Below, piece after piece: positions 17,805-54,177 of a stretch of 64,000 nt of DNA. Position numbers and translations under genes: made by a program. Below the pieces are notes generated by a model. That model did not search any database and was not told where the DNA came from. It was given only the letters and a program-made list of their open reading frames with translations. Origin of the DNA: Candidatus Levyibacteriota bacterium. Lineage in GTDB: Bacteria; Patescibacteriota; Microgenomatia; Levybacterales; GWA1-39-11. Location: the NCBI GenBank assembly GCA_039738415.1, contig JBCLLY010000001.1, forward strand, positions 53,621-117,620. Direction: 5' to 3'. Within the stretch, counting starts at the first letter, position 1; each line of letters starts with the position of its first letter.

Positions 17805-17844
17805 CTAGTTCTTATCCCAGTCGTTTCTTGTCGCGCAAAAAATG

Positions 17845-20579: not shown

Positions 20580-20667
20580 CATGAATTATGAATAATGAAG
20601 TAAGAAGCATGAAGTAGGAATTATGAAGCATGAAGCAGGAAGCATGAAGTATGAATAATGAAGCAGG
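20580..20667. repeat. heptanucleotide tandem array (CATGAAG/TATGAAT units)
   Basis: It fills the whole intergenic spacer and runs into the first codons of the next gene. Confidence 0.8.
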
Positions 20668-21040
20668 GAAGATAAAAAATTTTACCGATCTAAATGCATG
20701 GAAATATAGCCATAGTTTGGTTTTAGAAATTTATGAAATTACCAAGATTTTTCCTAAAGAAGAGCAATTTGGACTCACCAATCAAATAAGAAGAGCAGTC
20801 GTATCAATAAGTTCAAATATTGCTGAGGGATTTAGCAGAACTTCCTATAAAGATAAGTCTCATTTCTATTCAATGGCGTTAGGTTCTTTAACAGAGGTTC
20901 AAAACCAACTTATGATTGCGCGTGATTTAGGATACTTTTCAGTAGAAAAGTTCAATGAGTTAATAAAGGTCAGCATTACGGTAAGTAAACTTTTAAATGG
21001 ACTGCTTAAAAAATCAAAAACCATGATTCGTGACTCATGA
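20651..21040 (+). CDS. four-helix-bundle protein copy 2
   Basis: NIAEGFSRTSYKDKSHFYSMALGSLTEVQNQL signature. Confidence 0.75.
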   Translation: MNNEAGKIKNFTDLNAWKYSHSLVLEIYEITKIFPKEEQFGLTNQIRRAVVSISSNIAEGFSRTSYKDKSHFYSMALGSLTEVQNQLMIARDLGYFSVEKFNELIKVSITVSKLLNGLLKKSKTMIRDS

Positions 21041-21809: not shown

Positions 21810-21881
21810 GCCGTCTTAGCTCAGTGGTAGAGCAGCTGTTTTGTAAACAGCAGGTCTAGGGTTCGAATCCCTAAGACGGCT
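21810..21881 (+). tRNA. tRNA-Thr (anticodon TGT)
   Basis: Acceptor GCCGTCT, D-arm GCTC-AGTGGTA-GAGC, anticodon stem GCTGT/ACAGC with loop UUUGUAA, T-arm TAGGG-TTCGAAT-CCCTA. Confidence 0.85.
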
Positions 21882-21888
21882 CAACAAT

Positions 21889-22374: not shown

Positions 22375-22405
22375 TTGACATGAGGTGGGGGGGGGAGTGT
22401 TTAAT
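22375..22405 (+). promoter_or_regulatory. sigma70-like promoter TTGACA-19bp-TTTAAT with a G9 homopolymer (22387-22395) in the spacer
   Basis: The paralogous promoter at 23641 has G5 and a 17-bp spacer. Confidence 0.5.
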
Positions 22406-22414
22406 ATATATTAT

Positions 22415-23527
22415 ATGAGAGTTTTTCTGCCTAAAAGATCAAAGAAATCAATTTCGGTCATAGGGTTGATCGTAGTATTAATAAACCTTATGGTATTACC
22501 TCTTTTTGTAAGTCAAGTTGATGCCGGAACTTTTACCAGCCGTACAGTAACCATCTCTGACTCACGGGCAGGAAACACCGGCACAACGTATGATTTTGCC
22601 TTTACCGTTGTCGCAACCACAGCAATCAAGCAGTGGAACATTAAGTTTTGTACTGTTACAGGAGCCTACGATGACGCTTGCACAACACCAACCGGAATTG
22701 TAACAACCGGCGCAGCCATCGGATCAGACAACGTAACCGGCTCCGGCAGAACTAACACGTTTGGAGGAAACGGTGTTTTACAAACAGTTGTTACCACTCC
22801 TTCTACCCAAAGCCCGACAGGGGTTACTGTTTCTTACACCGGAATCACAAACCCAACAACAGCCGATACCACCTTCTTTGCCCGTATCATTACATATTCA
22901 GATCCGGGAACAACAGAGATTGACAGTGGGACAGTTGCCGCTGCCATTTTAACCTCCACCTCAATTGCCGTAACTGCCGCCATTGACTCAGCGCTTACTT
23001 TTACTGTGGCAGCTGTCAATAGCGGAGGAACCGTCAATGGAGCAACCACCAATATTACCACCACTGCTATCCTCATTCCTTTTGGGACGCTTTCTTCCGG
23101 TTCAACCAAAATTGCCGCTCATGACTTGACAGTGGAAACAAATGCTTCTGGCGGATACACGACCACTGTCAAGGCAACCGCTACTCCACCTTTAGTTAAT
23201 GGCTCAAATAATATTGATGTCTTTACCGGTGCTAATTCAAATCCAACAATTTGGAGTTCACCGGGTGGTACTGCCAACTCTGTTAATACCGGATTCTTTG
23301 GGTATACCACCAATGATGCGACTCTAGGCACAGGCACAGCCGACAGATTTACAGATACGGGTAATGAGTGGGCCGGAACTACCACCTCTCCTTTAGAGGT
23401 TGCCTTTTCCGCAACCGGTGCTTCTTCAGAGACAACAAGGGTAGGCTGGCAAGCTGAGGTTAACAGCATCCAAGCCGCAGGATCATATACCGGAACTGTT
23501 ATTTTAACGACTACGCCAACGTATTAA
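22415..23527 (+). CDS. Thr/Gly-rich secreted surface protein, tandem paralog A (signal peptide; C-terminal ...GSYTGTVILTTTPTY)
   Basis: Start set at ATG MRVFLPKRSKK. The track start GTG 22385 would translate the G tract. About 95% identical to paralog B. Confidence 0.6.
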   Translation: MRVFLPKRSKKSISVIGLIVVLINLMVLPLFVSQVDAGTFTSRTVTISDSRAGNTGTTYDFAFTVVATTAIKQWNIKFCTVTGAYDDACTTPTGIVTTGAAIGSDNVTGSGRTNTFGGNGVLQTVVTTPSTQSPTGVTVSYTGITNPTTADTTFFARIITYSDPGTTEIDSGTVAAAILTSTSIAVTAAIDSALTFTVAAVNSGGTVNGATTNITTTAILIPFGTLSSGSTKIAAHDLTVETNASGGYTTTVKATATPPLVNGSNNIDVFTGANSNPTIWSSPGGTANSVNTGFFGYTTNDATLGTGTADRFTDTGNEWAGTTTSPLEVAFSATGASSETTRVGWQAEVNSIQAAGSYTGTVILTTTPTY

Positions 23528-23640
23528 CTACGCGTACTATCAGAAAGATCACCAAGCAATTCTAGAACCTTATCCCTGAAGAAACCATAATCATAGCGGA
23601 GAAACTGTATACTATGTGTTGGACACCGTACAAGAAGTCC

Positions 23641-23669
23641 TTGACATGGAGTGAGGGGGAGTGTTTAAT
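23641..23669 (+). promoter_or_regulatory. sigma70-like promoter TTGACA-17bp-TTTAAT with a G5 tract
   Basis: Duplicated with gene B; the same architecture is seen at 49382-49410. Confidence 0.5.
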
Positions 23670-23678
23670 ATATACTAT

Positions 23679-24791
23679 ATGAGAGTTTTTCTGCCTAAAA
23701 GATCAAAGAAATCAATTTTGGCCATAGGGTTGATGGTAGTATTAATAAACCTTATGGTATTACCTCTTTTTGTAGGTAAAGCCAATGCCGACACCCTCAC
23801 AACCCGCAATCTAACCATCTCTGACTCACGGGCAGGAAACACCGGCACAACGTATGATTTTGCCTTTACCGTTGTCGCAACCACAGGAATCAAGCAGTGG
23901 AATATTAAGTTCTGTACTGCTGCGGGAGCCTACGCTGACGCTTGCACAACACCAACCGGAATTGTAACAACCGGCGCAGCCATCGGATCAGACAACGTAA
24001 CCGGCTCCGGCAGAACTAACACGTTTGGAGGAAACGGTGTTTTACAAACAGTTGTTACCACTCCTTCTACCCAAAGCCCGACAGAGGTTACTGTTTCTTA
24101 CACCGGAATCACAAACCCAACAACAACGGATACCACCTTCTTTGCCCGTATCATTACATATTCAGATCCGGGAACAACAGAGATTGACAGTGGGACAGTT
24201 GCCGCTGCCATTCTCACCACCACCTCAATAGCCGTAACTGCCGCCGTTGACCCAGCGCTTACCTTTACTGTAGCTGCTGTCAATTCCGGAACCGTCAATG
24301 GAGCAACCATCAATGTGACGACTTCAACTGCCGTCCTTATTCCTTTTGGGACGCTTTCTTCCGGTTCAACCAAAATTGCCGCTCATGACTTGACAGTGGA
24401 AACAAATGCTTCTGGCGGATACACGACTACTGTCAAGGCAACCGCTACTCCACCTTTAGTTGATGGCTCAAATAATATTGATGTCTTTACCGGTGCTAAT
24501 TCAAATCCAACAATTTGGAGTTCACCGGGTGGTACTGCCAACTCTGTTAATACCGGATTCTTTGGGTATACCACCAATGATGCGACTCTAGGCACAGGCA
24601 CAGCCGACAGATTTACAGATACGGGTAATGAGTGGGCCGGAACTACCACCTCTCCTTTAGAGGTTGCCTTTTCCGCAACCGGTGTTTCTTCAGAGATAAC
24701 AAGGGTAGGCTGGCAGGCTGAGGTCAACAGCATCCAAGCCCCAGGATCATATACCGGAACTGTTATTTTAACGACTACGCCAACATATTAA
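23679..24791 (+). CDS. Thr/Gly-rich secreted surface protein, tandem paralog B
   Basis: 370 aa; tandem duplication unit about 1266 bp. Confidence 0.6.
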   Translation: MRVFLPKRSKKSILAIGLMVVLINLMVLPLFVGKANADTLTTRNLTISDSRAGNTGTTYDFAFTVVATTGIKQWNIKFCTAAGAYADACTTPTGIVTTGAAIGSDNVTGSGRTNTFGGNGVLQTVVTTPSTQSPTEVTVSYTGITNPTTTDTTFFARIITYSDPGTTEIDSGTVAAAILTTTSIAVTAAVDPALTFTVAAVNSGTVNGATINVTTSTAVLIPFGTLSSGSTKIAAHDLTVETNASGGYTTTVKATATPPLVDGSNNIDVFTGANSNPTIWSSPGGTANSVNTGFFGYTTNDATLGTGTADRFTDTGNEWAGTTTSPLEVAFSATGVSSEITRVGWQAEVNSIQAPGSYTGTVILTTTPTY

Positions 24792-24808
24792 GCTAAAAAA
24801 AATTAAAA

Positions 24809-25762
24809 ATGAAAAATTCAAAGTTCAAAATGTTTAGCAAAACTCTTAATCAGAATAAACTGGTAGTAATTGCCTCTTTAGTCGCATCAACTTTGTTCTT
24901 ATCTGTTTTTCTAGGCTTCACGCTCGCTCAAAATACTGTTTCCAGCCAGTCTCTTGAGGTTTCTCCTCCATCACAAGAACTAAGAGCAGATCCCGGGCAG
25001 ACTATTACTGCAAAAGCAAAGGTGAGAAACAAGAGCGCGGAGAGCATAAACATTAAGGTTAGAATTGAAGATTTTACAGCAATTGGTGAGGAAGGACAGG
25101 TGGCTTTAATAGAGAAAGGCCCACAATCTTTAACTTCCTGGACTGTTGTTGAATCGGACACTTTTCCTTTAAAGCCCGGTGAGGCGAAAGAGGTTATCGC
25201 CAAAATTAGCGTACCCAAAGAAGCAGCCGGTGGCAAATATGGTTCTTTTGTCTTTTCAATCGGCGGGGAGGAGGCAGCTCCAGGTACTGCTGCCATTGCT
25301 CAAGAACTGGCCTCTCTTTTTTTAATCAGGATTTCCGGGCCAGTCAGCGAACAATTAACCATAGCCGAGTTTAAAGCACCTGCCTTTTTGGAGTTTGGGC
25401 CCGTCCCCTTTACCCTAAAGTTTCAAAACTCCGGTAATGTCCATGTCAAACCATTTGGGCTTATTAATATCACGGATGTTTTCGGCCGCGTGGTTAAAGA
25501 TGTAGTCGTAAGAGGTGAGACCAATATATTTCCAGGGGCATCAAGAATAGTGACAGTAAGCTACGATGAAAAACTGCTCCTTGGACCATACAAAGCCCAG
25601 GCAGTCTTAAATTTTGGCAGCAAGAATGAATCGATAACTGCCACCACCACTTTCTTTGTTTTTCCGGTTAGAATAGCTGCTGCTGTTCTTCTGGTTCTGT
25701 TCGTCCTTTACATTTCCAGGAAAAGGTTGGTTAAATCTATCAAAGCCTTGTCTGGAAAATGA
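24809..25762 (+). CDS. DUF916/CscA-like cell-surface protein (signal peptide, Ig-like body, C-terminal TM anchor plus KR tail)
   Basis: Architecture: N-terminal signal, ...LTSWTVV..., C-terminal AAAVLLVLFVLYISRKRL. Adjacent to Thr-rich secreted proteins, as in Gram-positive csc/WxL loci. Confidence 0.45.
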   Translation: MKNSKFKMFSKTLNQNKLVVIASLVASTLFLSVFLGFTLAQNTVSSQSLEVSPPSQELRADPGQTITAKAKVRNKSAESINIKVRIEDFTAIGEEGQVALIEKGPQSLTSWTVVESDTFPLKPGEAKEVIAKISVPKEAAGGKYGSFVFSIGGEEAAPGTAAIAQELASLFLIRISGPVSEQLTIAEFKAPAFLEFGPVPFTLKFQNSGNVHVKPFGLINITDVFGRVVKDVVVRGETNIFPGASRIVTVSYDEKLLLGPYKAQAVLNFGSKNESITATTTFFVFPVRIAAAVLLVLFVLYISRKRLVKSIKALSGK

Positions 25763-25786
25763 TACAATCGCGAATTTCGCAGTTGT

Positions 25787-25897
25787 CATTCTGGGGACTC
25801 AGAGCGAAGCGTGGAGGACTCCAGAATCTAATCAGATACGGATTCTGGACACCTGCCCGCAGATGCTGCGCATCAAGCGTTGCAGGCGGGAGCCAGA
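25787..25897. repeat. REP-like palindromic element (GTCATTCTGG...CCAGAATGAC outer inverted repeat with internal CCTGCCCGCA...GCGTTGCAGGCGGG hairpins)
   Basis: Read directly; related copies are dispersed across the window. Confidence 0.7.
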
Positions 25898-25935
25898 ATG
25901 ACGGGGAAGTGCGAAACTTGTAACAATGTTAATTA

Positions 25936-26343
25936 ATGAAACGCTCAAAATTACTATTTCTTATTATCCTCGCGGCAAGCGCAGGATTTGCACTACGCTG
26001 GCTGATTACAAATTTACAAACCAAGCCTGATATAAGTTTAATCCTGCAACAAAATGTAACGGGAGAACAGACCACTGCCGATCAGTTTATCACCTATATA
26101 GACTATGATGGCACTGAGTTTAAACCGGCAGCAGTCACTGTTAAAAAAGGCAACTATATTGCCATTACCAATCAGAGTAAAGATAAGCAGATGTGGCTGG
26201 TGTCTGATAATGCGGATTTAAATACAAAAAGGGGTTATGGGGAAGGTGAGAGGTTGCAACTTACTCTACTCAAAGAGGGTCGTTACATTGTAACCAACAG
26301 GCTTGATACAAAAGCCTCCATAGAAATTGTTGTTGAGCCTTAA
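25936..26343 (+). CDS. small secreted protein
   Basis: Signal-peptide-like N-terminus; 135 aa. Confidence 0.4.
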   Translation: MKRSKLLFLIILAASAGFALRWLITNLQTKPDISLILQQNVTGEQTTADQFITYIDYDGTEFKPAAVTVKKGNYIAITNQSKDKQMWLVSDNADLNTKRGYGEGERLQLTLLKEGRYIVTNRLDTKASIEIVVEP

Positions 26344-26378
26344 CTTTTCCTGTATAATACCCAAACCTATCCTAAAAT

Positions 26379-26900
26379 ATGGCCCAGAGATTAGTTTTAA
26401 CCCTAGTATTTATTACCTTACTCCTCATTCTTACTACAAGCCTGGTGGAGGCACAAGTATTAAGCGTCACTGCTACAGTACCTGTATCTGATGTTTGGGC
26501 AGAGGCTATTGTTAAAAATTCCAAGGTTCTTTCTGTTTGGGACGGACAAGAACTGTCTTATTTTGTTAGAGTCATAGGTCTAGATTATGAAATACTGGAC
26601 AATCATAAAGTCCAACTCCAGGTCTTTTTAGATGATCAACTGGTTACAGCCTTAACCCAAGAGTCTAAAGATTTTACTAAGTTTTCATTTATCCCCAAAG
26701 AAGAAGGTCGATACCACCTTATTTTCACCGATATCACTTGGGATCGTCACATAGAGCTGAAAGAATTAGAATTTGATCAGCCTCGTATTAAGATTTTCAA
26801 TGCTTTAGATACCTTTTTTCTATTGAGTAGTATGTATATTGATGAGAGCGTTCCTAATATTATCAGAACAGCCTTCGTAACAGGAAAACCAACAAAATGA
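26379..26900 (+). CDS. secreted protein
   Basis: Signal-peptide-like N-terminus; 173 aa. Convergently overlaps the next gene by about 120 bp. Confidence 0.4.
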   Translation: MAQRLVLTLVFITLLLILTTSLVEAQVLSVTATVPVSDVWAEAIVKNSKVLSVWDGQELSYFVRVIGLDYEILDNHKVQLQVFLDDQLVTALTQESKDFTKFSFIPKEEGRYHLIFTDITWDRHIELKELEFDQPRIKIFNALDTFFLLSSMYIDESVPNIIRTAFVTGKPTK

Positions 26901-27784
26901 GTTGTGGAATAGATGTAGTCGCCGTTTTCCAGTGAAACTGCAAGCGTAGCTGTATAGATTCCGCCGTAAAGATTGGGAATATCAAAAGCTCTTTGCCAGC
27001 GCCTGATCTTGCCTGGCAAAATAGTTTTTTCCTCCAGTTCAAAGGTTTGTTCTTCTCCGAATAATGGTTTAATAGTTAGAGCTGGTTTGGCACTGAAATA
27101 GTTAAGAGAAGTATTTTTGATCCTGATAGTTGCTCCGATAGGACCCCTTTCATAAATCTTATGGTCAAAATCAAAGGTGACAATTTCAGCCTTATTTTTT
27201 TGATCTTGTACTCCAATATTCGCCAAAGCCAACACCCCTATTTTAGAGCTAACCGGTACGCCTGGGAAGATAGGGGTAAAAAAGATCATGGCATAATAAC
27301 CGCCTAGTGGTACCTTATCAGGCACAGTAATTTGGATAGTAAAATCCTTTGCGGTTTTAGCTGGCAAGATGGCATCTTGGTCGCTGAGGGAAATCCAATC
27401 CATCAGTGGGGAAGCAATGTTTTCTTCAGATATTGTAATACCGTATTCCTCATCAGAGGCGTCAAAGCCTTCAACCGAGGCTCTTAGCGGTAAGGGAGCA
27501 TCAAGCAGGTTTTCTATTTTAACTTGATAATTTTGTTTTGTTCCCGGATCTAACTTCACTTTCAGGATAACCGGAGAAACACGAATCATTTGCTTAACAT
27601 GGGGCTGAACTTTTTCTAAAGCTATCGCTCTATTACTTAATATACTAAAACATATAGCAATAGTTAAAAGTGCACCTGCCCGCAATGCTAGCGCAAGCGT
27701 TGCCCGCCGGCATGCCTTTGGCAATGCCAATGGCGGCCAGGCAGGCGGGAGGTTAAAAGTTAGATACTTCTTCATAATTTTCAA
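26777..27784 (-). CDS. DUF916/CscA-like cell-surface protein (paralog); N-terminal region includes a translated GC-rich palindromic element
   Basis: ...LMDWISLS...GGYYAMIFF..., C-terminal TM plus NRKKVSK. N-terminal PPAWPPLALPKACRRATLALALRAGA is encoded by a REP-like palindrome (about 27655-27745). Confidence 0.45.
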   Translation of the reverse strand: MKIMKKYLTFNLPPAWPPLALPKACRRATLALALRAGALLTIAICFSILSNRAIALEKVQPHVKQMIRVSPVILKVKLDPGTKQNYQVKIENLLDAPLPLRASVEGFDASDEEYGITISEENIASPLMDWISLSDQDAILPAKTAKDFTIQITVPDKVPLGGYYAMIFFTPIFPGVPVSSKIGVLALANIGVQDQKNKAEIVTFDFDHKIYERGPIGATIRIKNTSLNYFSAKPALTIKPLFGEEQTFELEEKTILPGKIRRWQRAFDIPNLYGGIYTATLAVSLENGDYIYSTTHFVGFPVTKAVLIILGTLSSIYILLNRKKVSKALKILIRG

Positions 27785-27799
27785 TTTTTAATTTCTAAT

Positions 27800-27960
27800 G
27801 AGATTGCCACGCTCCATTTCATTCCGCTCGCAATGACAGTAAGTGCGAAAGTTGCCTTTCATAGTCGTCATTGCGATCCGCCAGCTGGCGGATCCTCGCA
27901 ATGACGGGTAAACTCATGATCGCAATGACGAGAGAAGGGAATTGTTTTTTAAAGTCTTGA
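27800..27960. repeat. REP-like cluster (GTCATTGCGA-TCCGCCAGCTGGCGGA-TCCTCGCAATGAC; CGCAATGAC four times)
   Basis: Long perfect inverted repeats. Confidence 0.7.
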
Positions 27961-28049
27961 TTGTTCATAATTTTGCACTTTGAATTCAAACTTTTAACTT
28001 TTAACTTTTAACTTTTTCAGCCAGAGGCTGATCCGCCTTTGGCGGAAAC

Positions 28050-29105
28050 TTAATACACCGGTACTACTACATAGACAACAGTATTAGTATAACTTCCTGC
28101 TCTGGTAGCAGAATCTCCTGTAACACGGTAAGTTATTGTAAATTGCTCGTTTGTTACAGTTGGATCCTCAATAACAGCCGTATGATCTGCTATCGGATCT
28201 CCAGGCGCTGATGTAGTAAATCCTGCATGTTTTGGCCCTCCAGTGGTAAACCTGTCTGCTGTGCCTCCCGCCAGATTATTATCATCAGTTGTATAACCAA
28301 AACCGGTTCCCGACCAGACAGCAGGGGCGGAATTAGGACTTGCAAAAGCTGGGATAGTATTTGATCCAGAGGTTAAAAGTCCTGTATTTCGACCATATAT
28401 AGTATAACCGTTATAGGCATTAGTCGAGGTGGTTAAAACTGTTGTTTTGGCACTGTCGGTAAAAGAGTTTCCGGAATTGAGGTTGGCAAAGGTGAGAGTT
28501 GCCGAGGATATGCCAAAAGTAAGCGAGGGGTTAGAAGTGGCAATGGCAGCAGATTCAGGTCCATACCCGCTTTCAGTAAAATTGCCCCTTTTGGCCTTCC
28601 CTTTTATCTCATAAGTAGTGTTGGCGTTCAGGGTTCTGACAAATTCACCCGTTGCCCCACCCCAGTCAGTATAGGTTTGCCAATCCTCTGTTCCTAAAAC
28701 TGTACCAACAGTATTATCATTTTGAACGTATTTAGTAGTAACAAAATCATCATCAGAGATAGCAATAGCAAATAAGGCGTCCGTGGGGTTACTCCCATTA
28801 TCGATAACGAACTTAAGCCTGTCATAATTGGTGGCCGGATTGGACAAAGTTGGCACTGGCGGAACATTGGCCTGCATAGTAAAGATTAACCCTGTACCAG
28901 CCTTAAAGCTTGTCGAACTTAATTGTCCAAACTCCAATTCCCCTGCTACCCCGAATAAGGAAAAATTAGTCGAATTAAAACCATCCGTTCCCCCACTGCC
29001 AAAAGTATAGTCTTTTAATTCGTAGTTAGTGCTGGTCGGCCCGGCAAAAACAGATAGAGGAAAGATTAATACAATTATAAAGAGTAAGATCAGTAGTTTA
29101 GCCAT
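28050..29105 (-). CDS. Thr/Gly-rich secreted surface protein (same family as 22415/23679; C-terminal ...GSYTNTVVYVVVPVY)
   Basis: Signal peptide and shared C-terminal block W..GFGYTT.D..L.GGTADRFT... Confidence 0.5.
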   Translation of the reverse strand: MAKLLILLFIIVLIFPLSVFAGPTSTNYELKDYTFGSGGTDGFNSTNFSLFGVAGELEFGQLSSTSFKAGTGLIFTMQANVPPVPTLSNPATNYDRLKFVIDNGSNPTDALFAIAISDDDFVTTKYVQNDNTVGTVLGTEDWQTYTDWGGATGEFVRTLNANTTYEIKGKAKRGNFTESGYGPESAAIATSNPSLTFGISSATLTFANLNSGNSFTDSAKTTVLTTSTNAYNGYTIYGRNTGLLTSGSNTIPAFASPNSAPAVWSGTGFGYTTDDNNLAGGTADRFTTGGPKHAGFTTSAPGDPIADHTAVIEDPTVTNEQFTITYRVTGDSATRAGSYTNTVVYVVVPVY

Positions 29106-29162: not shown

Positions 29163-29537
29163 TCATCTGTTTTTCTTCATAGTGATGATACTTGCCGCTA
29201 AAATATTGGCTAACTGTTCTACTTCATCAATTAAAGGGTTGATTTTTTCTGATGGAACCCTTTTTGTTTCTTTTAACAAAGTCAGCCAGTATTTTGCTTC
29301 ATTGGCACTTTTTAATGCATGAGTGTAAAAATTAATATAATCTCTTTTACTTGAGGCTGACTTTGCTTCGGTGATATTTGCCCCAATTGAAGTTGCACTT
29401 CTTATCAACTGATCTGCTATTACCCAACAAGAACGCACACTCGGCAAACTATCTGTTAATTCTATTACCTGAATTGAAAATTTAAAAGCTCTATCTAAAA
29501 AATTTTCTTTCTCTTTTTTTTGGTCTTTTATGTCCAT
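29163..29537 (-). CDS. four-helix-bundle protein copy 3
   Basis: IGANITEAKSASSKRDYINFYTHALKSANEAKYWL. Confidence 0.7.
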   Translation of the reverse strand: MDIKDQKKEKENFLDRAFKFSIQVIELTDSLPSVRSCWVIADQLIRSATSIGANITEAKSASSKRDYINFYTHALKSANEAKYWLTLLKETKRVPSEKINPLIDEVEQLANILAASIITMKKNR

Positions 29538-30759: not shown

Positions 30760-33700
30760 ATGAACAGAGATCAAAAAATAATTGTGATAAGTAAGGCGGC
30801 CAAATTTTTGGGAGTATCTATTGATACGGTGCGCCGCTATGACAAACTGGGCATTCTGCACTCTACCCGCCCCGGCGGTAAAATTCGTTACTTTGATATT
30901 CAAGAATTAAAAGCAGTTAAGTCCTCAAAACCTTTTATCGCTAAATCCCACATGGAAGGAGTCCCGCTTCGCCGCGAGGCGAGCCGGAGGGACTCCTTCC
31001 ATGTGAGAAGAAGGAAAATGGACAGCCAAGTTATTAACGCCATGAATACCTGCGTCACAACTGTCATTCCAGACTTTCTTACCATGAGCCTGTTGAATGA
31101 GATCCGGCATCTACATAAATATTTATGGATTCCCACTTTCGGGGTAATAATAGCACTTTTGCTACTCCTCCTCTTTTCTACACAAGCTCAGCCAGCTACA
31201 GGAACTAACAAACAGATCAATTTTCAGGGAAAAGTTGTTAACATTAATGGTACCAATGTTACCAATGGCAATTATTCATTTGTGTTCAGCTTATATACGG
31301 TTTCCTCCGGCGGATCCGACATCTGGACAGAAACAAAAACACTCACCGTAACAGATGGCATTTTCCGTACAGCTTTAGGATCAACCACTGCTTTTCCCGG
31401 ATCGGTTGACTTTAACACCGATAATATTTACTTGGGGATTAACTTCAACAGTGACGGCGAGATGACTCCAAGAGTCCAGTTCACCGCCGTGCCTCAAGCG
31501 TTTAATGCGTTAAAGGTTGCAGGGCTGACTGTGACTGATACCACCGGCACTTTTACGCTGGCTGATGCCAAAACCTTAACTGTCAGCAACACTTTAACTT
31601 TTGCAGGTACAGACGCCACCTCTTTTACCTTCCCTAGTACTACTGGTGGGACGGTCATAACCAGCAATGCGCCAACCCAATCCATTACCTCAACCCAAAC
31701 ATCAGGTACTGTATTGAGTGTTTCTAACTCCACTGGACTAGAAGCAGCTATTAAAGGTCAAGTCATTACCCTCTCCGGTGCTAACGCTTTTGACCAAACA
31801 GGTCTAGAATTTAACTTATCAGGGGCAACCGGCGCTAACTTAAATGACATTGTGGGTTCTGGCTCCACTTGGAAAGTATCAAAAGCCGGAGTTATAACCG
31901 TTGCATCTTGTACCGGTTGCAGCGGCGGAACTACTTGGAACAACATTACCAACCCAACTGGTACTCAGTCACTCACCTTCGACGATGGAGAACTAACTGC
32001 CTGGACAGTAAACTCAAATACCGAAACTTTCCAGACTATTACCGCAAACTCCCTAACCACAGGTACCGGCCTGTATATCGCTTCATCATCACTCTCATCG
32101 GGTACTCTCATTAACCTTGTTATCACTGGTACAGCTGGACTTACTAACCAAAAAGGTATTAATGTTTCACTCTCTGGCGCTAATGGTGCTGGAGCTCAAA
32201 CTACTTACGGTGGTTACTTTAGCAATACTCACACTGGAACTTCTACCAATGTCGGCCTGTACGCCACAGCCACTGGCGGAACAAACAACTACGCCGCAAT
32301 ATTTGCAGGCGGCAATGTAGGCATCGGCACCACTACTCCGACTGAAAAACTCTCCCTTGCCGGGGGTAACTTCTTACACACTGCCTCAGGTAATCCGACC
32401 TTAAAAGGGACATATGATACGACCGGGAATGCGTATGGAGTATATGTAAGCGGAAAATATGCATATGTTGCAGATGATCTCTCAGGTCTTCAGGTCATTG
32501 ATATAAGTACTCCTTCTAGCCCCACGCTTGTCGGGACATATAATACCAGCGGGAATGCGTATGGAGTATATGTAAGCGGAAAATATGCGTATGTTGCAGA
32601 TGATGGCTCAGGTCTTCAGGTGATTGATATAAGTACTCCTTCTAACCCCACGCTTGTTGGGACATATGATACGAGTGGGCTTGCGCGGGAAGTATATGTA
32701 AGCGGAAAATATGCGTATGTTGCAGATTATGACTCAGGGCTTCAGGTGATTGATATAAGTACTCCATCTGCCCCCACGCTTGTTGGGACATACGATACGA
32801 GCGGGGAGGCGTATGGAGTATATGTAAGCGGAAAATATGCATATGTTGCAGATGTTGCCTCAGGTCTTCAGGTGATTGATATAAGCGTACCATCTAGCCC
32901 CACGCTTGTCGGGACATATAATACGAGTGGGCTTGCGCGGGGAGTATATGTAAGCGGAAAATATGCGTATGTTGCAGATCAGACCTCAGGTCTTCAGGTA
33001 ATTGATATAAGTACTCCTTCTAGCCCTACGCTTGTCGGGACATATAATACGAGCGGGGATGCGTACGGAGTATATGTAAGCGGAAAATATGCGTATGTTG
33101 CAGATATTGGGCCAGGTCTTCAGGTGATTGATATAAGTACTCCTTCTAGCCCCACGCTTGTTGGGACATATAATACGAGCGATCTTGCGTGGGGAGTATA
33201 TGTAAGCGGAAAATATGCGTATGTTGCAGATGGTGCCTCAGGTCTTCAGGTGATTGATATAAATGGCATCGAAACACCTTCACTTTATGCAGGAAATATA
33301 GCCACAAATGACCTTACAGTTACAGAAAATGCCGATATCGCCAACAACTTGTCTATCGGAAATGGCCTCAATGTCGGGTCTGGCGGAATATTCTCAGCAG
33401 GAACCATCGCCCTTGTCTCAACAGATGTTAGCAATTCCCTGATCATTACAGCAAACTCGGTGACTACAGCAACGAGTATCAAAGTTAATACTACCGGACT
33501 TACTACTGGCAATGCTTTGGAAATTCTGGGCCCCTCCTCAACCAACCTTCTGACTATCGGAAGAACAAATCAGGGCTTTCTTGATTTTGCCAGAGTATCC
33601 ATTGGAACCTCTCAACAGCGCGATCAACTTCATGTTCAAGGCCGCATCAATACCACATGGGATTGGATAGATGAAAGTTTCCTTGGCTCAATTGCAGGAG

Positions 33701-38881: not shown

Positions 38882-38909
38882 TTGCTCTTTACCTGCCCGC
38901 CAATGCTTG

Positions 38910-46819: not shown

Positions 46820-48031
46820 ATGGTTAAACATATAAAAAACCCTATCTTCAGTACACTTTTAGTGATTGCACTGATTACTGCTGTTGCTTTGGGCGCAATC
46901 GCATATGGAAGAGGATATCGGGTAACCCGCGATGAGAACGGACGAAATATTGTGGCGGGAACAGGGCTTTTGGTTGTGACATCAGTACCTGATGGCGCCC
47001 GCGCATTTGTAGACGGTAAGCTAACTACGGCAACAGATAATACGATAAATCTCAAGCCGGGCAAATATAGCGTTAAAATCGAAAAGGACGGTTATTTTCC
47101 CTGGGAAAAGCAAATAGAAATAACAAATGAACGTGTAACCGAAACAAACGCTCTCCTATTTCCCAAAGCACCTCAACTTACAAATCTTACCACGACAGGC
47201 GTAAAAAATCCCGTTACAGACAAGGACAGACGCATTATCGCCTACACTGTTGCTTCCGCTTCTTCTGAGCTAAATGGTATATATACTTTGAATTTAAATC
47301 GCGGCATAATTCCTATCGGAAGTGCGAGACGGCAGCTCGCAAATAATCTTATCGATAATTTTTCTGAAGCAAAATTAGAGGTTTCACCCGATGGGCTAAG
47401 AATTCTTGCAACAATTAAATCAGAATTAACAGGCTCTGACAGAACTTATATTTTAAACACTAATGAATTTAACTCCTCTCCTTTACTTATCACTGCAACT
47501 GCACAAAATTTAAGAGATGAATGGAGACTGGAGGAGGAAAAAATTTACAGCGGTAAGATTAGATCTCTACCTAGAAAAACACAAGAAATATTTAACGCTT
47601 ATATTACATTTCCTCTTTTTTCACCCGAAGAAGATAAGGTTCTTTACATAGCGTCCATTAGCGGTAACCTATTACCAACGGTTAATCCGCCAATCCCAAG
47701 CACAAATTCAACCCCCGAAACAAGAAGCTTAGTTGAAGGAAATGTATATATTTACGACATAAAAGATGACAAAAACTATTTATTAAAGGAAAAAGGCGAT
47801 AATCCTTTTCCTAAATTTATTTGGCATCCCGGAAATAGACACTTATATTACATAGAAGGAAATCGTATAAACTCTATTGAATACGACAGATCAAATATCA
47901 CAACTATTTACGCAGGACCATTTCTAAATAACTTCATAACTCCTTGGGCGGATGGAACAGGACTTGTAATCTTAACCAGCTTTAATGACCCGAGTATCCC
48001 ACCAAATCTCTACAGGCTGATTTTTAGATAA
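46820..48031 (+). CDS. PEGA domain-containing membrane-anchored protein
   Basis: N-terminal TM; LLVVTSVPDGARAFVDGKLTTATDNTINLKPGKYSVKIEKDGYFPWEKQIEI is a PEGA domain. Confidence 0.55.
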   Translation: MVKHIKNPIFSTLLVIALITAVALGAIAYGRGYRVTRDENGRNIVAGTGLLVVTSVPDGARAFVDGKLTTATDNTINLKPGKYSVKIEKDGYFPWEKQIEITNERVTETNALLFPKAPQLTNLTTTGVKNPVTDKDRRIIAYTVASASSELNGIYTLNLNRGIIPIGSARRQLANNLIDNFSEAKLEVSPDGLRILATIKSELTGSDRTYILNTNEFNSSPLLITATAQNLRDEWRLEEEKIYSGKIRSLPRKTQEIFNAYITFPLFSPEEDKVLYIASISGNLLPTVNPPIPSTNSTPETRSLVEGNVYIYDIKDDKNYLLKEKGDNPFPKFIWHPGNRHLYYIEGNRINSIEYDRSNITTIYAGPFLNNFITPWADGTGLVILTSFNDPSIPPNLYRLIFR

Positions 48032-48091
48032 TTCGGTTTAAGAGGGCACTCCCCGCTTGCTACTTTTGTAAAAATGCGGAATACTTAATAT

Positions 48092-48946
48092 ATGAAAAAA
48101 ATCCTGTTTTATATATTTTCTGTGGCTTTGGTTTTTACGAATAATACTTCTTTTGCCCAAACACTTCTCCCCGAACACGCGCAGTCCGAACCGGTCATAG
48201 TCAAAGCAACAATTGGAGAATTCTATCTCAATATAACGGCCTACCAGTCTCCTAACGCATCTATCGTAATAGAAACTGTAAGTAGCATATTTCTCGCCTC
48301 CACAACCGCAGATGGAAACGGATACTTCGGATTTTCCAACATCTTAATTACGCAGGATTTTCCGGGATTTTGTTTTAGAGCAATAGATTTTAGAAGAATT
48401 GGAGAATCCGAATCATGCGTAGAAATTAAGGAGATAATAACCGAGGATAAGAAGTACTCAGATATATTTCTTCCTCCTACGATAGGGCTGTCGAAAAAAT
48501 TAATCCTTGCCGGAGAGAACGCTCAGATATTTGGATATTCGATGCCCTATGCAGCAGTTGCTATAAATTTTGAAAAAGAAACCATAACTCTTCAGGCAGA
48601 TGAAACAGGATACTATGAATACATTTTTGAAAATGCACCGGCGGGAGTTTATGCTTTTTCGTCTAGGGCAAAACTGCAAGAAGTTGACTCGCTTGAACCC
48701 AAAAACAAAGCAATACTTGAGGTAATAACCCCTCAGGAGCAGATAAGACAAGACATCACGGGATTTTTGGAAGATGTAGAGAAAAAATTTCCGGGAGCGC
48801 TTATTTTTGCTGCTCTTCTAATTATTTTGCTAGCGCTTCTTATAGCACTTATTTGGAAAACAAAGCCTAGATTTATTTACGCATTCTTTGACAAATTCAA
48901 GAAAAAATACCCAATGCACCACGACTACTTTTTGTTCAAACAATAG
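48092..48946 (+). CDS. secreted protein with C-terminal TM anchor (hypothetical)
   Basis: Signal peptide and C-terminal hydrophobic segment ALIFAALLIILLALLIALIW. Confidence 0.4.
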   Translation: MKKILFYIFSVALVFTNNTSFAQTLLPEHAQSEPVIVKATIGEFYLNITAYQSPNASIVIETVSSIFLASTTADGNGYFGFSNILITQDFPGFCFRAIDFRRIGESESCVEIKEIITEDKKYSDIFLPPTIGLSKKLILAGENAQIFGYSMPYAAVAINFEKETITLQADETGYYEYIFENAPAGVYAFSSRAKLQEVDSLEPKNKAILEVITPQEQIRQDITGFLEDVEKKFPGALIFAALLIILLALLIALIWKTKPRFIYAFFDKFKKKYPMHHDYFLFKQ

Positions 48947-49421: not shown

Positions 49422-50978
49422 ATGATTATTGGAAATTATTCCGTTTATAAAGCTTCTCTTATTTTTAGCTTAACAGCTGGATTTCTTTTGTTTCTTTACC
49501 TAATTACGCCCAAAGCCTACGCCGCGAATCTTCTTAATTCCAGCAATACCATTACAACCTCACGTCCTTCAGCCTCATCTCCGTTTTTCGTGAATGCCGC
49601 AACAGGTGACACACTTGCATCAATTTATAATAACGGCTCGTTTTATCTTGCTTCAGACTCCGCAAAGACTATTAAAAGCTTTACAGGAAGCTATACTGAC
49701 GTAGGAACAATTGTCGCTTCACAGTCTGCAGCTCTTACTACGGTATATTTTGGCGAGACACTCGGCGTCGCCGCATTTAAAGATGCTGACGTTCTAGTTG
49801 TACCTATATCCGCAAGACATAAAATTCAATTTACCATTCCTACTACAATTCCAAATACCGGAGATATAATAATAACTTTCCCATCGCTTGCAACTGGCGA
49901 TGCAAATAACGAAGCATCCCCTTCTGCAAGCACTTTCCAGTTCAATAATATGGATGCAAATGATGGAACGCTTATTAAAATTCTCGATGATAATACTGAC
50001 ATCACTGCAAATACAACTATCTCTGCGACTAATCCTTCAGGGGTTGGAGATGGTCCTGATATAAATATTACGATAGATACTGGAACTATCGCAGCAGGAA
50101 GCTTAGTTGAAATATTTATAGGGTGCACGACTGTTGCGGCCGGTGACTGCACAGTATCAACACCCACTCTAATAAATCCTACAAAATCTGCAGTTGCAGG
50201 AACCGCTGATGTTTGGAAAATAAATGTTCAAACAAGAGATGATAGTGATATTAACCTAGACAATGCTACGATAGCTATCGGTACGATAGACTCAGTCGCA
50301 GTTAGAGCGACTGTCGACCCCACTCTTTCATTTACCATAGTAGGACTTGCAAATGGCGACCAGGTAAATTTAGGAAATACAGATGGATGTCTGCAGGCCG
50401 AAACAACAAATACAGGGATACCCGCTACTGCTACTGAGGTAAATTTAGGTCTTCTTTTAGATCCTCCCGGAACCGATGTAAAAATAAGAAGTATCGCAGC
50501 ACAAAGGATAAATATCAGCACAAATGGTGCTGGAGGATATGCTCTAACTGCGACCAGCTCAGGCACACTGATAAATCCTTCTACCGGATTTTTCCTAGAA
50601 TCATCCACCACACCAACAGCTTTCCCTGCGGCAACTGATTGGTTCGGAATTCATGCCTGTGGACTAGACACGTATGGAGGGGGTATTTCAACCACTTTTT
50701 GGAATACTACAGCAACAAACACCGAATGTGGGACCTGCGTTACGGGCTCAGGTTCTTGTCCTGACGCAGCAGGCCCGGGTACAAATATATGTAAATATGG
50801 ATGGCCTACCCAGGCCTCAGCATTAACTCTCGCATCTGATACTACTGGGCCTATTGGAAATACCGTAGCTCTAGGAAACGGCATAATTTCTGTTGCATAC
50901 GCCGGCACTGTTGATGCTCTTATTCCTCCAGGTGAATACAGAACAGTTATTACTTATGTCGCGACACCGACGTTTTGA
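49422..50978 (+). CDS. Thr-rich secreted surface protein (family member; C-terminal ...PGEYRTVITYVATPTF)
   Basis: Signal peptide; shares sequence blocks with 52684..54177. Confidence 0.55.
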   Translation: MIIGNYSVYKASLIFSLTAGFLLFLYLITPKAYAANLLNSSNTITTSRPSASSPFFVNAATGDTLASIYNNGSFYLASDSAKTIKSFTGSYTDVGTIVASQSAALTTVYFGETLGVAAFKDADVLVVPISARHKIQFTIPTTIPNTGDIIITFPSLATGDANNEASPSASTFQFNNMDANDGTLIKILDDNTDITANTTISATNPSGVGDGPDINITIDTGTIAAGSLVEIFIGCTTVAAGDCTVSTPTLINPTKSAVAGTADVWKINVQTRDDSDINLDNATIAIGTIDSVAVRATVDPTLSFTIVGLANGDQVNLGNTDGCLQAETTNTGIPATATEVNLGLLLDPPGTDVKIRSIAAQRINISTNGAGGYALTATSSGTLINPSTGFFLESSTTPTAFPAATDWFGIHACGLDTYGGGISTTFWNTTATNTECGTCVTGSGSCPDAAGPGTNICKYGWPTQASALTLASDTTGPIGNTVALGNGIISVAYAGTVDALIPPGEYRTVITYVATPTF

Positions 50979-51081: not shown

Positions 51082-52062
51082 ATGAAAAGGTCTGTCCAAA
51101 CGAAACACTTTCTAAAAATCAGCCTACCGGCTATTCTTATTTCTTTTTTTCTAGTCGCAATAGCACAGATTGCTCTCGCTCAAACCACTCCAACCAGAAG
51201 CATCGTAATCTCCCCGCCTACAATTGAGCATACTCTAAATCCTGGAGAAAGAGCTGAGGGGATTTTGAAGGTCACAAACAGCGGAAATACAGATCTTGCT
51301 TTCGGAGCAAATATACACGATTTTATAGTTGAGGATAAAAACGGAACACCTGTCATTCTTACTACAGATAAATTATCTGAAAAATATTCCGGCGCATCGT
51401 GGATAGCTGTTACTCCAAAAACATTTACTGTTCCCGCCGGAACAACAAAAGAGATCAACTATTATCTTCAAGTTCCCCTCGATGCTGCTCCCGGAGGACG
51501 TTATGCTGCCGCAATTTATGAACCAATTGACATAATTAGAGTCGAGGGTACCGGCGCCGGAGTTAATACACAATTAGGGTCACTTTTTTACATAACTGTC
51601 GCAGGACCGGTGACGGAAAGCGCGCAAGTCGAGCTTTTTTCAGCTCCTCCATTCTCGGAATATCCACCGGTAAAGATTTTTACAGAAATAAGCAATAACA
51701 GCGATGTGCATATAAAACCAAGTGGCAATATCGTAATTAAAAATATGTTTGGTCAGGAAATTGCCAGACAAACTTTTTCCGGAGGAAATATATTTCCAGA
51801 GGCAAATCTAAGATATACAAATGAATTCTTTTCAGACTCAAATTTTAAAATAGGCCGCTATACTGCTGAGCTTTCCGCGATATACGGACAGGATAACAAT
51901 CTACCTCTTTTTGCAACACTTAGCTTCATAATTTTCCCCTGGAAAGTCGCACTGGTACTAGTACTAATCGCGTCAATCTCAGTAGTCGCATTCTTACTAT
52001 TCAAAAGGAAGAAGAACAAAAAAGACACAAAACCATCTGAAACCCCAACGCCACGGGGATAG
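51082..52062 (+). CDS. DUF916/CscA-like cell-surface protein (paralog)
   Basis: ...ASWIAVTP...GGRYAAAIY..., C-terminal TM plus KRKKNKK tail. Confidence 0.45.
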   Translation: MKRSVQTKHFLKISLPAILISFFLVAIAQIALAQTTPTRSIVISPPTIEHTLNPGERAEGILKVTNSGNTDLAFGANIHDFIVEDKNGTPVILTTDKLSEKYSGASWIAVTPKTFTVPAGTTKEINYYLQVPLDAAPGGRYAAAIYEPIDIIRVEGTGAGVNTQLGSLFYITVAGPVTESAQVELFSAPPFSEYPPVKIFTEISNNSDVHIKPSGNIVIKNMFGQEIARQTFSGGNIFPEANLRYTNEFFSDSNFKIGRYTAELSAIYGQDNNLPLFATLSFIIFPWKVALVLVLIASISVVAFLLFKRKKNKKDTKPSETPTPRG

Positions 52063-52683: not shown

Positions 52684-54177
52684 ATGCACCAAAAGATCTT
52701 ATTTAAATTTTTTCTAAGCTTATCAGGCTTTATAGCTTTATTTTTGGCAAATAACGAGGTCTACGCCGCGGATTTGGTAAATGCCAGCAATACCATCACA
52801 ACCTCACGTCCTTCAGCCTCATCTCCGTTCTTAGCAGACGCTGCCTCCGGTGATACACTTGCGTCAATATTTAATAACGGCTCTTTTTATCTTGCTTCAG
52901 ACTCCGCTCAAACCCGTCAAGGAGGTACTGGTACGCTTATGGATACTGGCACCATAATCTCTTCCCAGTCTGCAGCACTCACTACAGTGTATTTTGGGGA
53001 ACAGCTAGGCGTCGCAGCGGGCGCAAATGCAGATGTCCTAATCGTACCAATTACGGCAATGCATAGAATCCGATTTACTATTCCTACCGAAATTCCAGCT
53101 AACGGAGATATTGTTATTACTTTCCCATCGCTTGCCACGGGCGATGCAAATAACGAAGCATCCCCTTCTGCAAGCACTTTCCAGTTCAATAATATGGATG
53201 CAAATGATGGAACCCTAATACAAATCGTTGATGATGGAACAAATATAGATGCCTCGACAACACCTACCGCAACTAACTCTACAGGGGATGGAGATGGTCC
53301 TGATATACATATTGCAACTACATCAATTATTGCGGCAGGGAGCGTTGTTGATATATATATCGGATGCTCAGCTGCAATTACTTCCTGCTCTGCGCAAGTC
53401 CCCACTCTAATAAATCCTACAAAAACAGCAGTCGCGGGAACCGCTAATGTTTGGAAAATAAATGTTCAAACAAGAGATGCTACCGACGTTAACCTAGATA
53501 ATGCAACAATAGCTGTCGGTACGATAGACTCAGTCGCAGTTAGAGCGACTGTCGACCCCACTCTTTCATTTACAATTACCGGAGTAAATAACGGACTGGC
53601 GGTAAATACCGGAAATACAACAGGATGTTTGCAAACAGAAACAACAAACGCGGGCGCGGCTTCCACTTCAACCGAGGTAAATCTGGGGCTTCTTGCCAAC
53701 GCTCCATCCGGAACAGATGTCAAGGTAGGAAATATAGCAACACAAAGGATAAATATCAGCACAAATGGAGCTGGAGGATATGTTCTAACTGCAACTTCTT
53801 CCGGTCAGCTTATAAATCCTGCAACCGGATTTTTCCTAGCTTCAGCAACAACTCCTACTGCTTTTCCTGCAAGCGGAGCTGATTGGTTTGGAATTCACGC
53901 ATGCGGATTGGACGTGACAACCGCTACGTGGAACTCTACTGCAAGCACTGCATGCAATACTTATATTTCAGGCTCAACAGATCCTATTTGCCTTTATGGT
54001 TGGCCTACCCAAACAACCGCAGTTACGCTTGCTTCAGACGCCACAGGACCGGTGGGAAATTCTCTCACTGCCGGAAATGGAGTTGTCTCTGTTGCTTACG
54101 CAGCTGCAACTGACGCTGGCGTACCCCCTGGAGAATACAGGACTGTTATAACTTACGTTGCAACGCCGGCATTCTAG
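52684..54177 (+). CDS. Thr-rich secreted surface protein (paralog of 49422)
   Basis: Start placed at ATG before the signal peptide (MHQKILFKFFLSLSGFIALFLA). The track ORF begins at 52576 inside the REP element. Confidence 0.5.
   Translation: MHQKILFKFFLSLSGFIALFLANNEVYAADLVNASNTITTSRPSASSPFLADAASGDTLASIFNNGSFYLASDSAQTRQGGTGTLMDTGTIISSQSAALTTVYFGEQLGVAAGANADVLIVPITAMHRIRFTIPTEIPANGDIVITFPSLATGDANNEASPSASTFQFNNMDANDGTLIQIVDDGTNIDASTTPTATNSTGDGDGPDIHIATTSIIAAGSVVDIYIGCSAAITSCSAQVPTLINPTKTAVAGTANVWKINVQTRDATDVNLDNATIAVGTIDSVAVRATVDPTLSFTITGVNNGLAVNTGNTTGCLQTETTNAGAASTSTEVNLGLLANAPSGTDVKVGNIATQRINISTNGAGGYVLTATSSGQLINPATGFFLASATTPTAFPASGADWFGIHACGLDVTTATWNSTASTACNTYISGSTDPICLYGWPTQTTAVTLASDATGPVGNSLTAGNGVVSVAYAAATDAGVPPGEYRTVITYVATPAF

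Follow-up and report, generated by a model that had tools for sequence, protein, structure and literature searches.

Two gene clusters of a Levyibacteriota genome that probably encode a Pam-type donor-strand-exchange pilus with WxLIP-related membrane-anchored proteins

The described system closest to the loci treated here comes from the Candidate Phyla Radiation (CPR) parasite Ca. Mycosynbacter amalyticus, two filaments of which were solved by cryo-electron microscopy (cryo-EM; 25PZ, 25QA; preprint 10.64898/2026.03.03.709456). This Pam system comprises the pilins PamA, PamB, PamE and PamT, the chaperones PamC and PamD and the anchor PamR. PamT is a single-domain tip pilin, PamC and PamD are FimC/PapD-like chaperones that keep a C-terminal transmembrane (TM) helix, and PamR is an RbmA-like anchor that has a strand at its N-terminus and a TM helix at its C-terminus. 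In the same work, distant PamA homologues of Microgenomatia, with about 21% identity and a conserved predicted structure, were found by language-model search alone, and the neighbourhood of pam and ATP synthase genes is given as an association, not as a definition of the system (10.64898/2026.03.03.709456). A second system, the WxL/Csc complex, consists of small WxL proteins, large WxL proteins, the WxLIP protein (DUF916, DUF3324 and a TM helix) and the LPXTG protein CscD (PMC10599100, PMC9772566, PMC1534035). In this work we analysed a stretch of 64,000 nucleotides, hereafter the window, from a Candidatus Levyibacteriota bacterium belonging to Microgenomatia (GenBank assembly GCA_039738415.1, contig JBCLLY010000001.1, positions 53,621 to 117,620 of the forward strand), in which an earlier note, made from the letters of the DNA, had described a cell-surface gene cluster mirroring the csc/WxL loci of Gram-positive bacteria. 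We report here how its genes are related, how their products are predicted to fold and to lie in the membrane, how far the operons are conserved and where the motifs lie; in our reading the window probably holds two operons of the CPR-specific Pam-type donor-strand-exchange pilus, in a Microgenomatia form.

The two clusters (22415-29105, with seven genes, and 46820-54177; Table 1) contain five threonine-rich, pilin-like proteins, namely A1, A2 and T in the first and B1 and B2 in the second, together with three membrane-anchored proteins, C1, C2 and C3. All the genes named in the earlier note were found in place, its two small secreted proteins being S1 and S2, and the second cluster does repeat the arrangement of the first in B1, C3 and B2, extended upstream by the R gene and a gene for a PEGA-domain protein. 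A1 and A2 are the richest in threonine (21%), followed by T, B1 and B2 with about 15% each, and over the five pilin genes its share is 17% versus 5% in the housekeeping genes of the window. The common C-terminal block that had been noticed in three of these proteins is present in all five, in the form G.Y..T.....P.[YF], and its end coincides with the stop codon (A1 ..AGSYTGTVILTTTPTY; A2 ..PGSYTGTVILTTTPTY; T ..AGSYTNTVVYVVVPVY; B1 ..PGEYRTVITYVATPTF; B2 ..PAF). With a glycine at position -14 and a terminal aromatic residue, this end is reminiscent of the motif that closes the pilins of chaperone-usher systems. Identity is 92% between A1 and A2 and 69-71% between B1 and B2, the B pilins are related to the A pilins (blastp E about 1e-5), and T has its C-terminal stretch of about 165 residues in common with A1 and A2 (blastp E 1e-9; hhalign 99.4%, E 1.8e-21). 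The anchored proteins are likewise paralogues (blastp; C1-C3 31% identity, E 2e-31; C1-C2 E 3e-13; C2-C3 E 3e-14); each begins with a hydrophobic signal segment and has, towards its C-terminus, a hydrophobic helix with a K/R tail behind it. Searches with the protein families gave 469, 314 and 606 homologous matches. As judged from these alignments, the similarities of the clusters are far beyond chance.

The family of the threonine-rich subunits was sought in Pfam and in NCBIfam release 20, which holds two models derived from the Pam preprint, NF058581 (CPR_Pam_pilin_C) and NF058579 (PamT). At its C-terminus, A1 matched NF058581 with E 6.5e-6 over positions 6-148 of 148, and near-whole matches at the C-terminus were also obtained for A2 (E 1.1e-5) and B1 (E 6.7e-4). 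In T the match covers residues 207-351 (E 1.1e-8), so that in these four proteins the model is covered from position 4-6 to 148 of 148; B2 gave no match in the NCBIfam scan. In addition, the N-terminal 76 residues of T (4-76) matched positions 7-80 of the 241 of NF058579 (E 2e-12). Since the scores are significant but lie below the curated cut-off, homology to the Pam pilin domain is supported at a level short of NCBI family membership. The homologues agree with the window proteins: NF058581 matched 58 of the 63 members of the A-type family (best E 3.6e-11) and all 60 members of the T-type family, 58 of which also matched PamT (best E 9.7e-13 and 1.4e-17, respectively). Searched against 1.84 billion proteins, a profile built from the five C-terminal domains (CTDs) alone retrieved 1,496 cluster representatives, of which 775 had E<=1e-10, and NF058581 matched 103 of 122 hits of this profile (best E 4.3e-14). 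The Pam-like domain stands at the extreme C-terminus in every hit listed, in proteins of about 130 to 3,817 residues. Giant proteins of 1,000-3,817 residues (P0403, P0410, P0418, P0452, P0503, P0508 and others) also end in a Pam-like domain, and by analogy they may be pilus-borne adhesins, the counterpart of the "large WxL" proteins.

The earlier note had seen in the C-terminal motif a likeness to WxL or SCPU domains, and this identity of the subunits is rejected. No Pfam match was found for the threonine-rich proteins of the window, including none to PF13731 (WxL) or PF05229 (SCPU) at E<=1, and neither of these two models matched the 63 family members at E<=10. In the motif search, the W-x-L tripeptide was absent from all subunits and LPxTG from all cluster proteins, the single occurrence of LPPTG being located upstream of the likely start of B2. 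When the Pam-like CTD was compared with ten real WxL proteins by hhalign, probabilities of 0.6%, 0.9% and 3% were obtained; the best local alignment twice paired "TNA..GY.VT" with the first WxL motif, "D.RG..GW.L.V", a pairing of no statistical weight. Because the subunits match the Pam pilin domain, the functional reading shifts from a peptidoglycan-bound complex to a polymerising pilus.

For the anchored proteins, the assignment of C1 and C2 to the DUF916/CscA type found support. The AlphaFold2 (AF2) model of C1, built on 59 sequences (predicted local distance difference test, pLDDT, 87.2), shows two beta-sandwich domains (49-175 and 183-284), the first with a low-confidence loop (152-164) ahead of its last strand (..ELASLFLIRISG), and then a TM helix (287-314). 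Its top fold matches in the PDB (Foldseek) were the WxLIP of E. faecium bound to a long WxL protein (9i25_C, E 2.5e-11) and WxLIP alone (9i1y), followed by the fimbrial chaperones CfaA, CsuC, SafB, DraB, FimC, FaeE and Caf1M (E 1e-10 to 1e-7, TM-score 0.47-0.57 on the target); RbmA was also among the matches. Against PF06030 (WxLIP_PGBD, formerly DUF916), with a cut-off of 27.3 bits, C1 scored 24.6, C2 21.1 and the remaining paralogue of the window 13.7 bits, and the model matched 55 of the 59 members of the chaperone family (best E 1.1e-8), none of which had a Pfam match to DUF3324. When the profile of this family was searched against all PDB chains, the best hit was EfmWxLIP1, weak and over both domains (E 0.026), and its alignment with the eight WxLIP proteins of eight real Firmicutes WxL clusters (Enterococcus, Listeria, Bacillus, Lactococcus, Melissococcus and Lactiplantibacillus plasmids) reached 96.4% in hhalign, with E 1.2e-9 over 228 columns and both domains. 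These comparisons support C1, C2 and C3 as homologues of WxLIP (DUF916-DUF3324), with the window proteins themselves below the Pfam threshold. The predicted layout of C1, two Ig-like domains and a C-terminal TM helix, is also that published for PamC and PamD, as compared by description. Of the profile searches that the earlier note had proposed, PF06030 thus came out positive, below its cut-off, and DUF3324, WxL and SCPU negative; the structure predictions it had proposed led to the WxLIP fold for C1 and, for A1, to a list of the best 50 matches that lacks the WxL chain of 9i25. The likeness to csc/WxL loci therefore stands for the anchored protein and for the logic of the cluster, and is unsupported for the subunits.

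This divided result bears directly on the reading of the loci as a non-filamentous surface complex of the WxL/Csc type, in which an anchored DUF916-type protein would hold the secreted subunits on the wall one to one, or in a small complex displaying binding domains, with no polymer being formed. Such a complex could draw on anchored proteins that are WxLIP homologues, on the solved structure 9i25, in which WxLIP is bound to a long WxL protein, on a modelled DUF916 strand that inserts into WxL (PMC10599100), and on the order of genes for small subunit, anchored protein and larger subunit, which is also found in real WxL clusters. It would, however, have to do with subunits that carry no WxL signature in Pfam, motif or profile-profile comparisons and that match instead a pilin domain whose filaments are solved, and with neither an LPxTG partner nor a sortase; moreover, a conserved linker left unplaced in the subunit model, and echoed in the N-termini of S2 and R, would be superfluous for a 1:1 complex. 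We consider this, the main alternative, improbable.

That linker appeared in the AF2 model of A1, built on an alignment of 63 sequences (pLDDT 85.6), which consists of a signal helix (8-31), a beta-sandwich (about 38-179) and a second all-beta domain (194-370). This predicted architecture of beta-sandwich, linker and CTD is the one described for PamA and PamB. The sole internal segment with pLDDT <50 is 183-191, "SIAVTAAID", in which S183, A185, V186 and A188 show little or no variation across the family. Since it is strongly conserved yet unplaced in the model of the monomer, the segment fits a donated strand, and we take it from the model as a candidate donor strand. The profile alignment of the A and T families (hhalign) begins at residue 188 of A1 and residue 189 of T, at the end of the linker, and no conserved donor-like linker word was found in T by family alignment or motif scan.

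A word describing the linker, [VM][TRK]A[TAH][VI], was searched as a regular expression in every stop-free segment of the six reading frames of the window (31,507 amino acids in total), where it occurs six times. Four occurrences are the linkers between the N-terminal domain and the CTD of A1, A2, B1 and B2, and the other two lie within the first approximately 15 mature residues of S2 ("QVLSVTATVPVSD") and of R ("EPVIVKATIGEFY"). In S2 the word is close to S[IL]A[VM]TA.V, the linker of the A type, and in R to V[RTK]AT[VI], the linker of the B type, each in the matching cluster. Homologues of S2 in seven other genomes start with "SLAMTATVPVSPLW" or similar, a small open reading frame (ORF) after S1 in locus L049 starts with "NLSVTATVAAS", and two homologues of R start with "S.VVTATVGQFYL". 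In donor-strand systems, a protein that donates a strand and has no acceptor domain is typically a chain terminator or an anchor, as are PapH and, in the model of the Pam preprint, PamR. Because S2 and R have a donor-like N-terminal strand and no acceptor domain, they are, by this analogy, candidate terminator or anchor subunits. R had no family match in the Pfam scan, gave only noise against PDB sequences and reached 1.5% probability against the chaperone family (hhalign). As for S2, its gene on the forward strand converges with that of C2 on the reverse strand and overlaps it by 124 nucleotides (26777-26900); its last 39 or so residues are not conserved, and its homologues end about 135-140 residues in. 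The overlap probably arose from an inversion of the T-C2 module in this lineage.

Conservation of the cluster in related genomes, which the earlier note had named as a check, was clear. The chaperone alignment was scanned against one genome per GTDB species, and in the 55 loci found the ORFs were screened with the window proteins. The order T-C2-A-C1-S1 on one strand, with one to four copies of A, was present in 35 of the 55, and the layout of the window, in which A-C1-S1 is followed by the inverted C2-T module, in a further 7. Five-gene synteny is thus kept in 42 of the 55 loci, most of the other 13 being interrupted by contig ends; C2 always adjoins T in related genomes. S1 is located directly behind C1 in 53 of the 55. 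Its conserved domain is cupredoxin-like without conserved Cys or His (23.7 bits against Pfam Cupredoxin_1, cut-off 27) and gave only noise against PDB sequences. A role of S1 as a donor-strand anchor was rejected, since conservation is lacking in the segment behind its TM helix. For the second cluster, the order PEGA-R-B-C3-B is kept in two metagenome contigs (L057, L058). PEGA homologues also occur 6-10 kb downstream of an operon of the cluster 1 type in L024, L035, L036 and L046, which suggests that the PEGA protein is functionally tied to pilus loci. The window is near-identical to contig JBCLLX010000011.1 of GCA_039731645.1, which annotates C2 from the ATG at 27775, the other possible start being the TTG at 27784. 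All properly named related genomes are Microgenomatia/Patescibacteria (Gottesman-, Levy- and Roizmanbacteria, Microgenomates). Many GTDB representative records that bear the operon (L006-L014, L016-L018, L022, L024, L028-L031 and others) are titled "uncultured Gammaproteobacteria" or "Pseudomonadales", and single ones "Methylomirabilota" or "Limisphaerales"; these titles outside Patescibacteria are evidently placeholders or mislabels.

Neither of the two conserved gene sets, as seen in both clusters and in the 55 loci screened for the cluster families, includes an usher-like or a sortase gene. Assembly of a Gram-positive type of pilus by sortase, which would suit a monoderm-like CPR host and secreted, threonine-rich, Ig-like subunits, would need what these loci do not contain: apart from the missing sortase, the subunits have no LPxTG and no C-terminal hydrophobic anchor and end in a free ..P.[YF]. 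The chance that the pili are of this kind is, in our estimate, vanishingly small.

Several results weigh against the assignment to a Pam-type pilus. The NF058581 scores, 20-35 bits, are all below the curated cut-off of 55, and T scores 47 bits for PamT where the cut-off is 240, in a match limited to the N-terminal third of the model; for the scores below the NCBIfam cut-offs, we regard the system of the window as a distant Microgenomatia branch. In the NCBIfam scan of the chaperone family no Pam chaperone model was matched, only generic Ig-like families. S1 is not among the described components of pam operons, and no ATP synthase subunit was found among the 20 flanking genes scanned, despite the association reported in the preprint. 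The linker word was defined post hoc and occurs elsewhere at a random rate (9 in 380,942 amino acids of unrelated ORFs); the evidence is its position and its conservation there, not the bare word. Foldseek retrieved only generic tandem-Ig adhesins from the PDB for the A1 model (TM-score <0.27), a result due to the absence of the Pam entries 25PZ and 25QA from the set searched; searches of PDB chains, likewise without these two entries, with A1, T, the A-family profile and the five-sequence CTD profile gave nothing relevant. Finally, no filament has been observed in any Microgenomatia.

In a further alternative, the proteins would be unrelated Ig-like adhesins or S-layer-type envelope proteins that have no more than beta-sandwich folds in common with pilins and chaperones and lie together in a general envelope neighbourhood. 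Besides the generic adhesins matched by the pilin model in the PDB, many weak matches to NPCBM_assoc, FixG_C, fn3_5, choice-of-anchor T and PACE-CTERM S-layer families point in this direction, as do the envelope genes nearby (BacA, WecG, LytR_C and MreB). Such a neighbourhood would not account for specific, end-to-end matches to the Pam pilin that are consistent over hundreds of homologues, for a subunit domain that is always at the extreme C-terminus, for the strict synteny of five genes in species genomes or for a WxLIP homology as specific as that of the anchored proteins, and we consider it very unlikely.

That the subunits form filaments, exchange strands and follow a given order is inferred from the Ca. 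Mycosynbacter amalyticus filaments solved by cryo-EM, and by this analogy the following mechanism may be proposed. All components, whose signal segments are visible in the sequence, would be exported by Sec. The two-domain subunits (A1 and A2 in cluster 1, B1 and B2 in cluster 2) would leave the membrane with a C-terminal Ig-like domain one strand short, and an anchored chaperone, C1, C2 or C3, would bind the newly exported subunit and fill the missing strand first; this role of C1-C3 is proposed because of their fold homology to WxLIP and to the chaperones of chaperone-usher systems. The linker of the next subunit, S[IV]AV[TR]A.[VI]D, would then displace the strand of the chaperone, giving a head-to-tail polymer without usher or outer membrane, and, starting at the cytoplasmic membrane, a linear fibre would grow outwards. 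The first subunit, at the tip, would be T, for which C2 would be a dedicated chaperone; A in cluster 1 and B in cluster 2 would form the shaft, and S2 or R, respectively, would cap the proximal end, with the C-terminal helix of R possibly also serving as a membrane tether.

Table 1. Genes and linker of the two clusters, in coordinates of the window.
Feature	Position	Strand	Description or basis
A1, major pilin-like subunit	22415..23527	+	370 aa from ATG; signal peptide, N-terminal beta-sandwich, linker strand, C-terminal Pam-pilin-like domain
A1 linker "SIAVTAAID", candidate donor strand	22961..22987	+	residues 183-191
A2, major pilin-like subunit, second copy	23679..24791	+	linker at 24225-24251
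C1, membrane-anchored chaperone-like protein, WxLIP/DUF916 homologue, PamC/D-like architecture	24809..25762	+	AF2, Foldseek, hhalign
S1, small protein with N-terminal TM anchor and cupredoxin-like beta-sandwich	25936..26343	+	operon member, conserved
S2, small secreted protein with linker-like mature N-terminus "QVLSVTATVPVSD", candidate chain terminator	26379..26900	+	motif position, homologues
C2, second membrane-anchored chaperone-like protein	26777..27784	-	paralogue of C1 and C3; C-terminal TM helix 302-320
T, PamT-like, candidate tip subunit	28050..29105	-	PamT-like N-terminal segment, middle domain, Pam-pilin C-terminal domain
PEGA-domain membrane protein, heads cluster 2	46820..48031	+	PF08308 E 7.3e-14
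R, candidate anchor/terminator, PamR-like role	48092..48946	+	signal peptide, beta-rich body, C-terminal TM helix, conserved cytoplasmic tail
B1, larger pilin-like subunit	49422..50978	+	518 aa, conserved cysteine pairs; linker "SVAVRATVD" at 50292-50318
C3, third membrane-anchored chaperone-like protein	51082..52062	+	C-terminal TM helix 274-310
B2, B1 paralogue	52684..54177	+	linker at 53530-53556

Other features of the window were observed around these genes. The scan for promoters and terminators gave nothing above shuffled sequences. Antisense ORFs of 113-162 amino acids lie inside the pilin genes (23119-23469, 24383-24733, 50228-50611 and 52917-53405, all on the reverse strand), where the local GC content is raised (0.45 versus about 0.37-0.39); taken with this GC content, the ORFs look like by-products of a coding strand rich in Thr, Gly and Ala, not like genes. 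A tRNA-Thr(TGT) gene (21810-21882, forward strand) is located about 530 bp upstream of A1, the gene of a subunit with one Thr in five residues, and all three tRNA-Thr isoacceptors (GGT, TGT and CGT) are present in the window, the others at 17844-17916 and 38909-38982, both on the reverse strand; as a conserved feature this adjacency was rejected, being present in 1 of 36 related loci (L005). Cluster 1 is flanked by three paralogues of the PF05635 four-helix-bundle "23S rRNA intervening sequence protein" (19848-20258, 20651-21040 and 29163-29537). An ORF of 1794 amino acids (30760-36144, forward strand) fuses a MerR-type helix-turn-helix (HTH; residues 10-45) to a very large surface-type beta-propeller protein of LVIVD repeats and is annotated likewise in GCA_039731645.1; the combination is odd and could stem from a misplaced start or from a regulator tethered to the membrane. 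The stretch from one pilus cluster to the other contains an IS200-like Y1 transposase (42159-42806) and a secreted CAP/SCP-domain protein of 528 amino acids (39183-40769).

Compared with the Pam system, the loci of the window have in common a CPR host, Sec-exported two-domain pilins with a CTD matching NF058581, a PamT-like subunit, chaperone-like proteins with two Ig-like domains and a C-terminal TM helix, the lack of an usher, and genes in one operon. Larger pilins with paired cysteines are another point in common, as is the candidate anchor R with its donor-like N-terminus and C-terminal TM helix. They differ from it in scores below the NCBIfam cut-offs, in a middle domain of T that the single-domain PamT lacks, in S1 and the small, soluble, terminator-like S2, neither of which is described for pam, and in the presence of two separate operons with different pilin types and without an ATP synthase neighbourhood.

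With WxL/Csc clusters (PMC10599100, PMC9772566, PMC1534035; 9i25, 9i1y) they have in common an anchored protein homologous over both domains and with the same topology, subunits of unequal size that carry one common C-terminal domain and whose genes adjoin that of the anchored protein, and monoderm envelopes. In contrast, the subunits of the window have no WxL domain, W-x-L motif or profile similarity to WxL, its anchored proteins have no DUF3324 match in Pfam, it has neither LPXTG protein nor sortase, its host belongs to CPR and not to Lactobacillales or Bacillales, and WxL proteins are described as bound to peptidoglycan, not as fibres. Since WxL domains and the LPXTG partner are absent, the loci are not a WxL cluster.

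With chaperone-usher systems (Pap/Fim, CfaA of CFA/I, archaic Csu) the likeness is in the modelled fold of C1 and in a presumed donor-strand complementation and exchange. Here, however, both usher and outer membrane are lacking, the chaperones are anchored in the membrane and the putative donor strand, instead of extending the N-terminus, links two domains within the subunit; PapD-family and fimbrial Pfam models, including SCPU, gave no sequence-level match to the window proteins. Because the usher is missing and the chaperones are anchored, the loci are not a chaperone-usher system either.

The relationship of the Pam-type chaperones to WxLIP raises a wider question. In both systems, subunits that are small, two-domain or giant share one strictly C-terminal domain, and the anchored proteins of the two are homologous. 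Furthermore, in small WxL proteins of real clusters on Firmicutes plasmids (L059:4112-4810, L059:5930-6643, L061:4056-4769, L063:1504-3780) the mature N-terminus is a conserved strand, "SNG.I.F", and a low-complexity linker rich in Pro and Asp leads from it to the WxL domain, a layout that, by analogy, looks like a donor-strand extension. It is conceivable, and we propose it tentatively, giving it somewhat less than even weight, that the Pam pilus of CPR and the WxL/Csc system of Firmicutes are two branches of one ancient strand-complementation system of monoderm envelopes, assisted by chaperones, lacking an usher and distantly tied to chaperone-usher pili. If so, WxL proteins may polymerise or be passed on by strand exchange and not simply bind peptidoglycan, and the Microgenomatia operon T-C2-A-C1-S1, with S2 or R as cappers through their N-terminal strand, would represent the ancestral machinery in compact form. 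The link between Pam-type chaperones and WxLIP may be new: WxL and DUF916 are not mentioned in the Pam preprint, and no paper linking Pam and WxL was found in the literature searched. Beyond that preprint, the present analysis adds the T-C2-A-C1-S1 operon with its S1 protein, the PEGA-R-B-C3-B operon, terminator or anchor candidates recognisable from sequence, and the WxLIP link.

Pam pili are abundant surface filaments for host contact by a cultured CPR parasite and were identified in 2026 in Saccharimonadia only. The window, as we probably should read it, places a Pam-type system in Microgenomatia, a class without cultured members, in which proteins of this type are still annotated as hypothetical because they fall below the NCBI family thresholds. 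The homology of its chaperone-like proteins to WxLIP connects CPR pili to the WxL/Csc clusters of enterococci, listeriae and lactobacilli, and strand complementation would provide, by analogy, a concrete and testable mechanism for Pam-type pili and WxL/Csc complexes alike.

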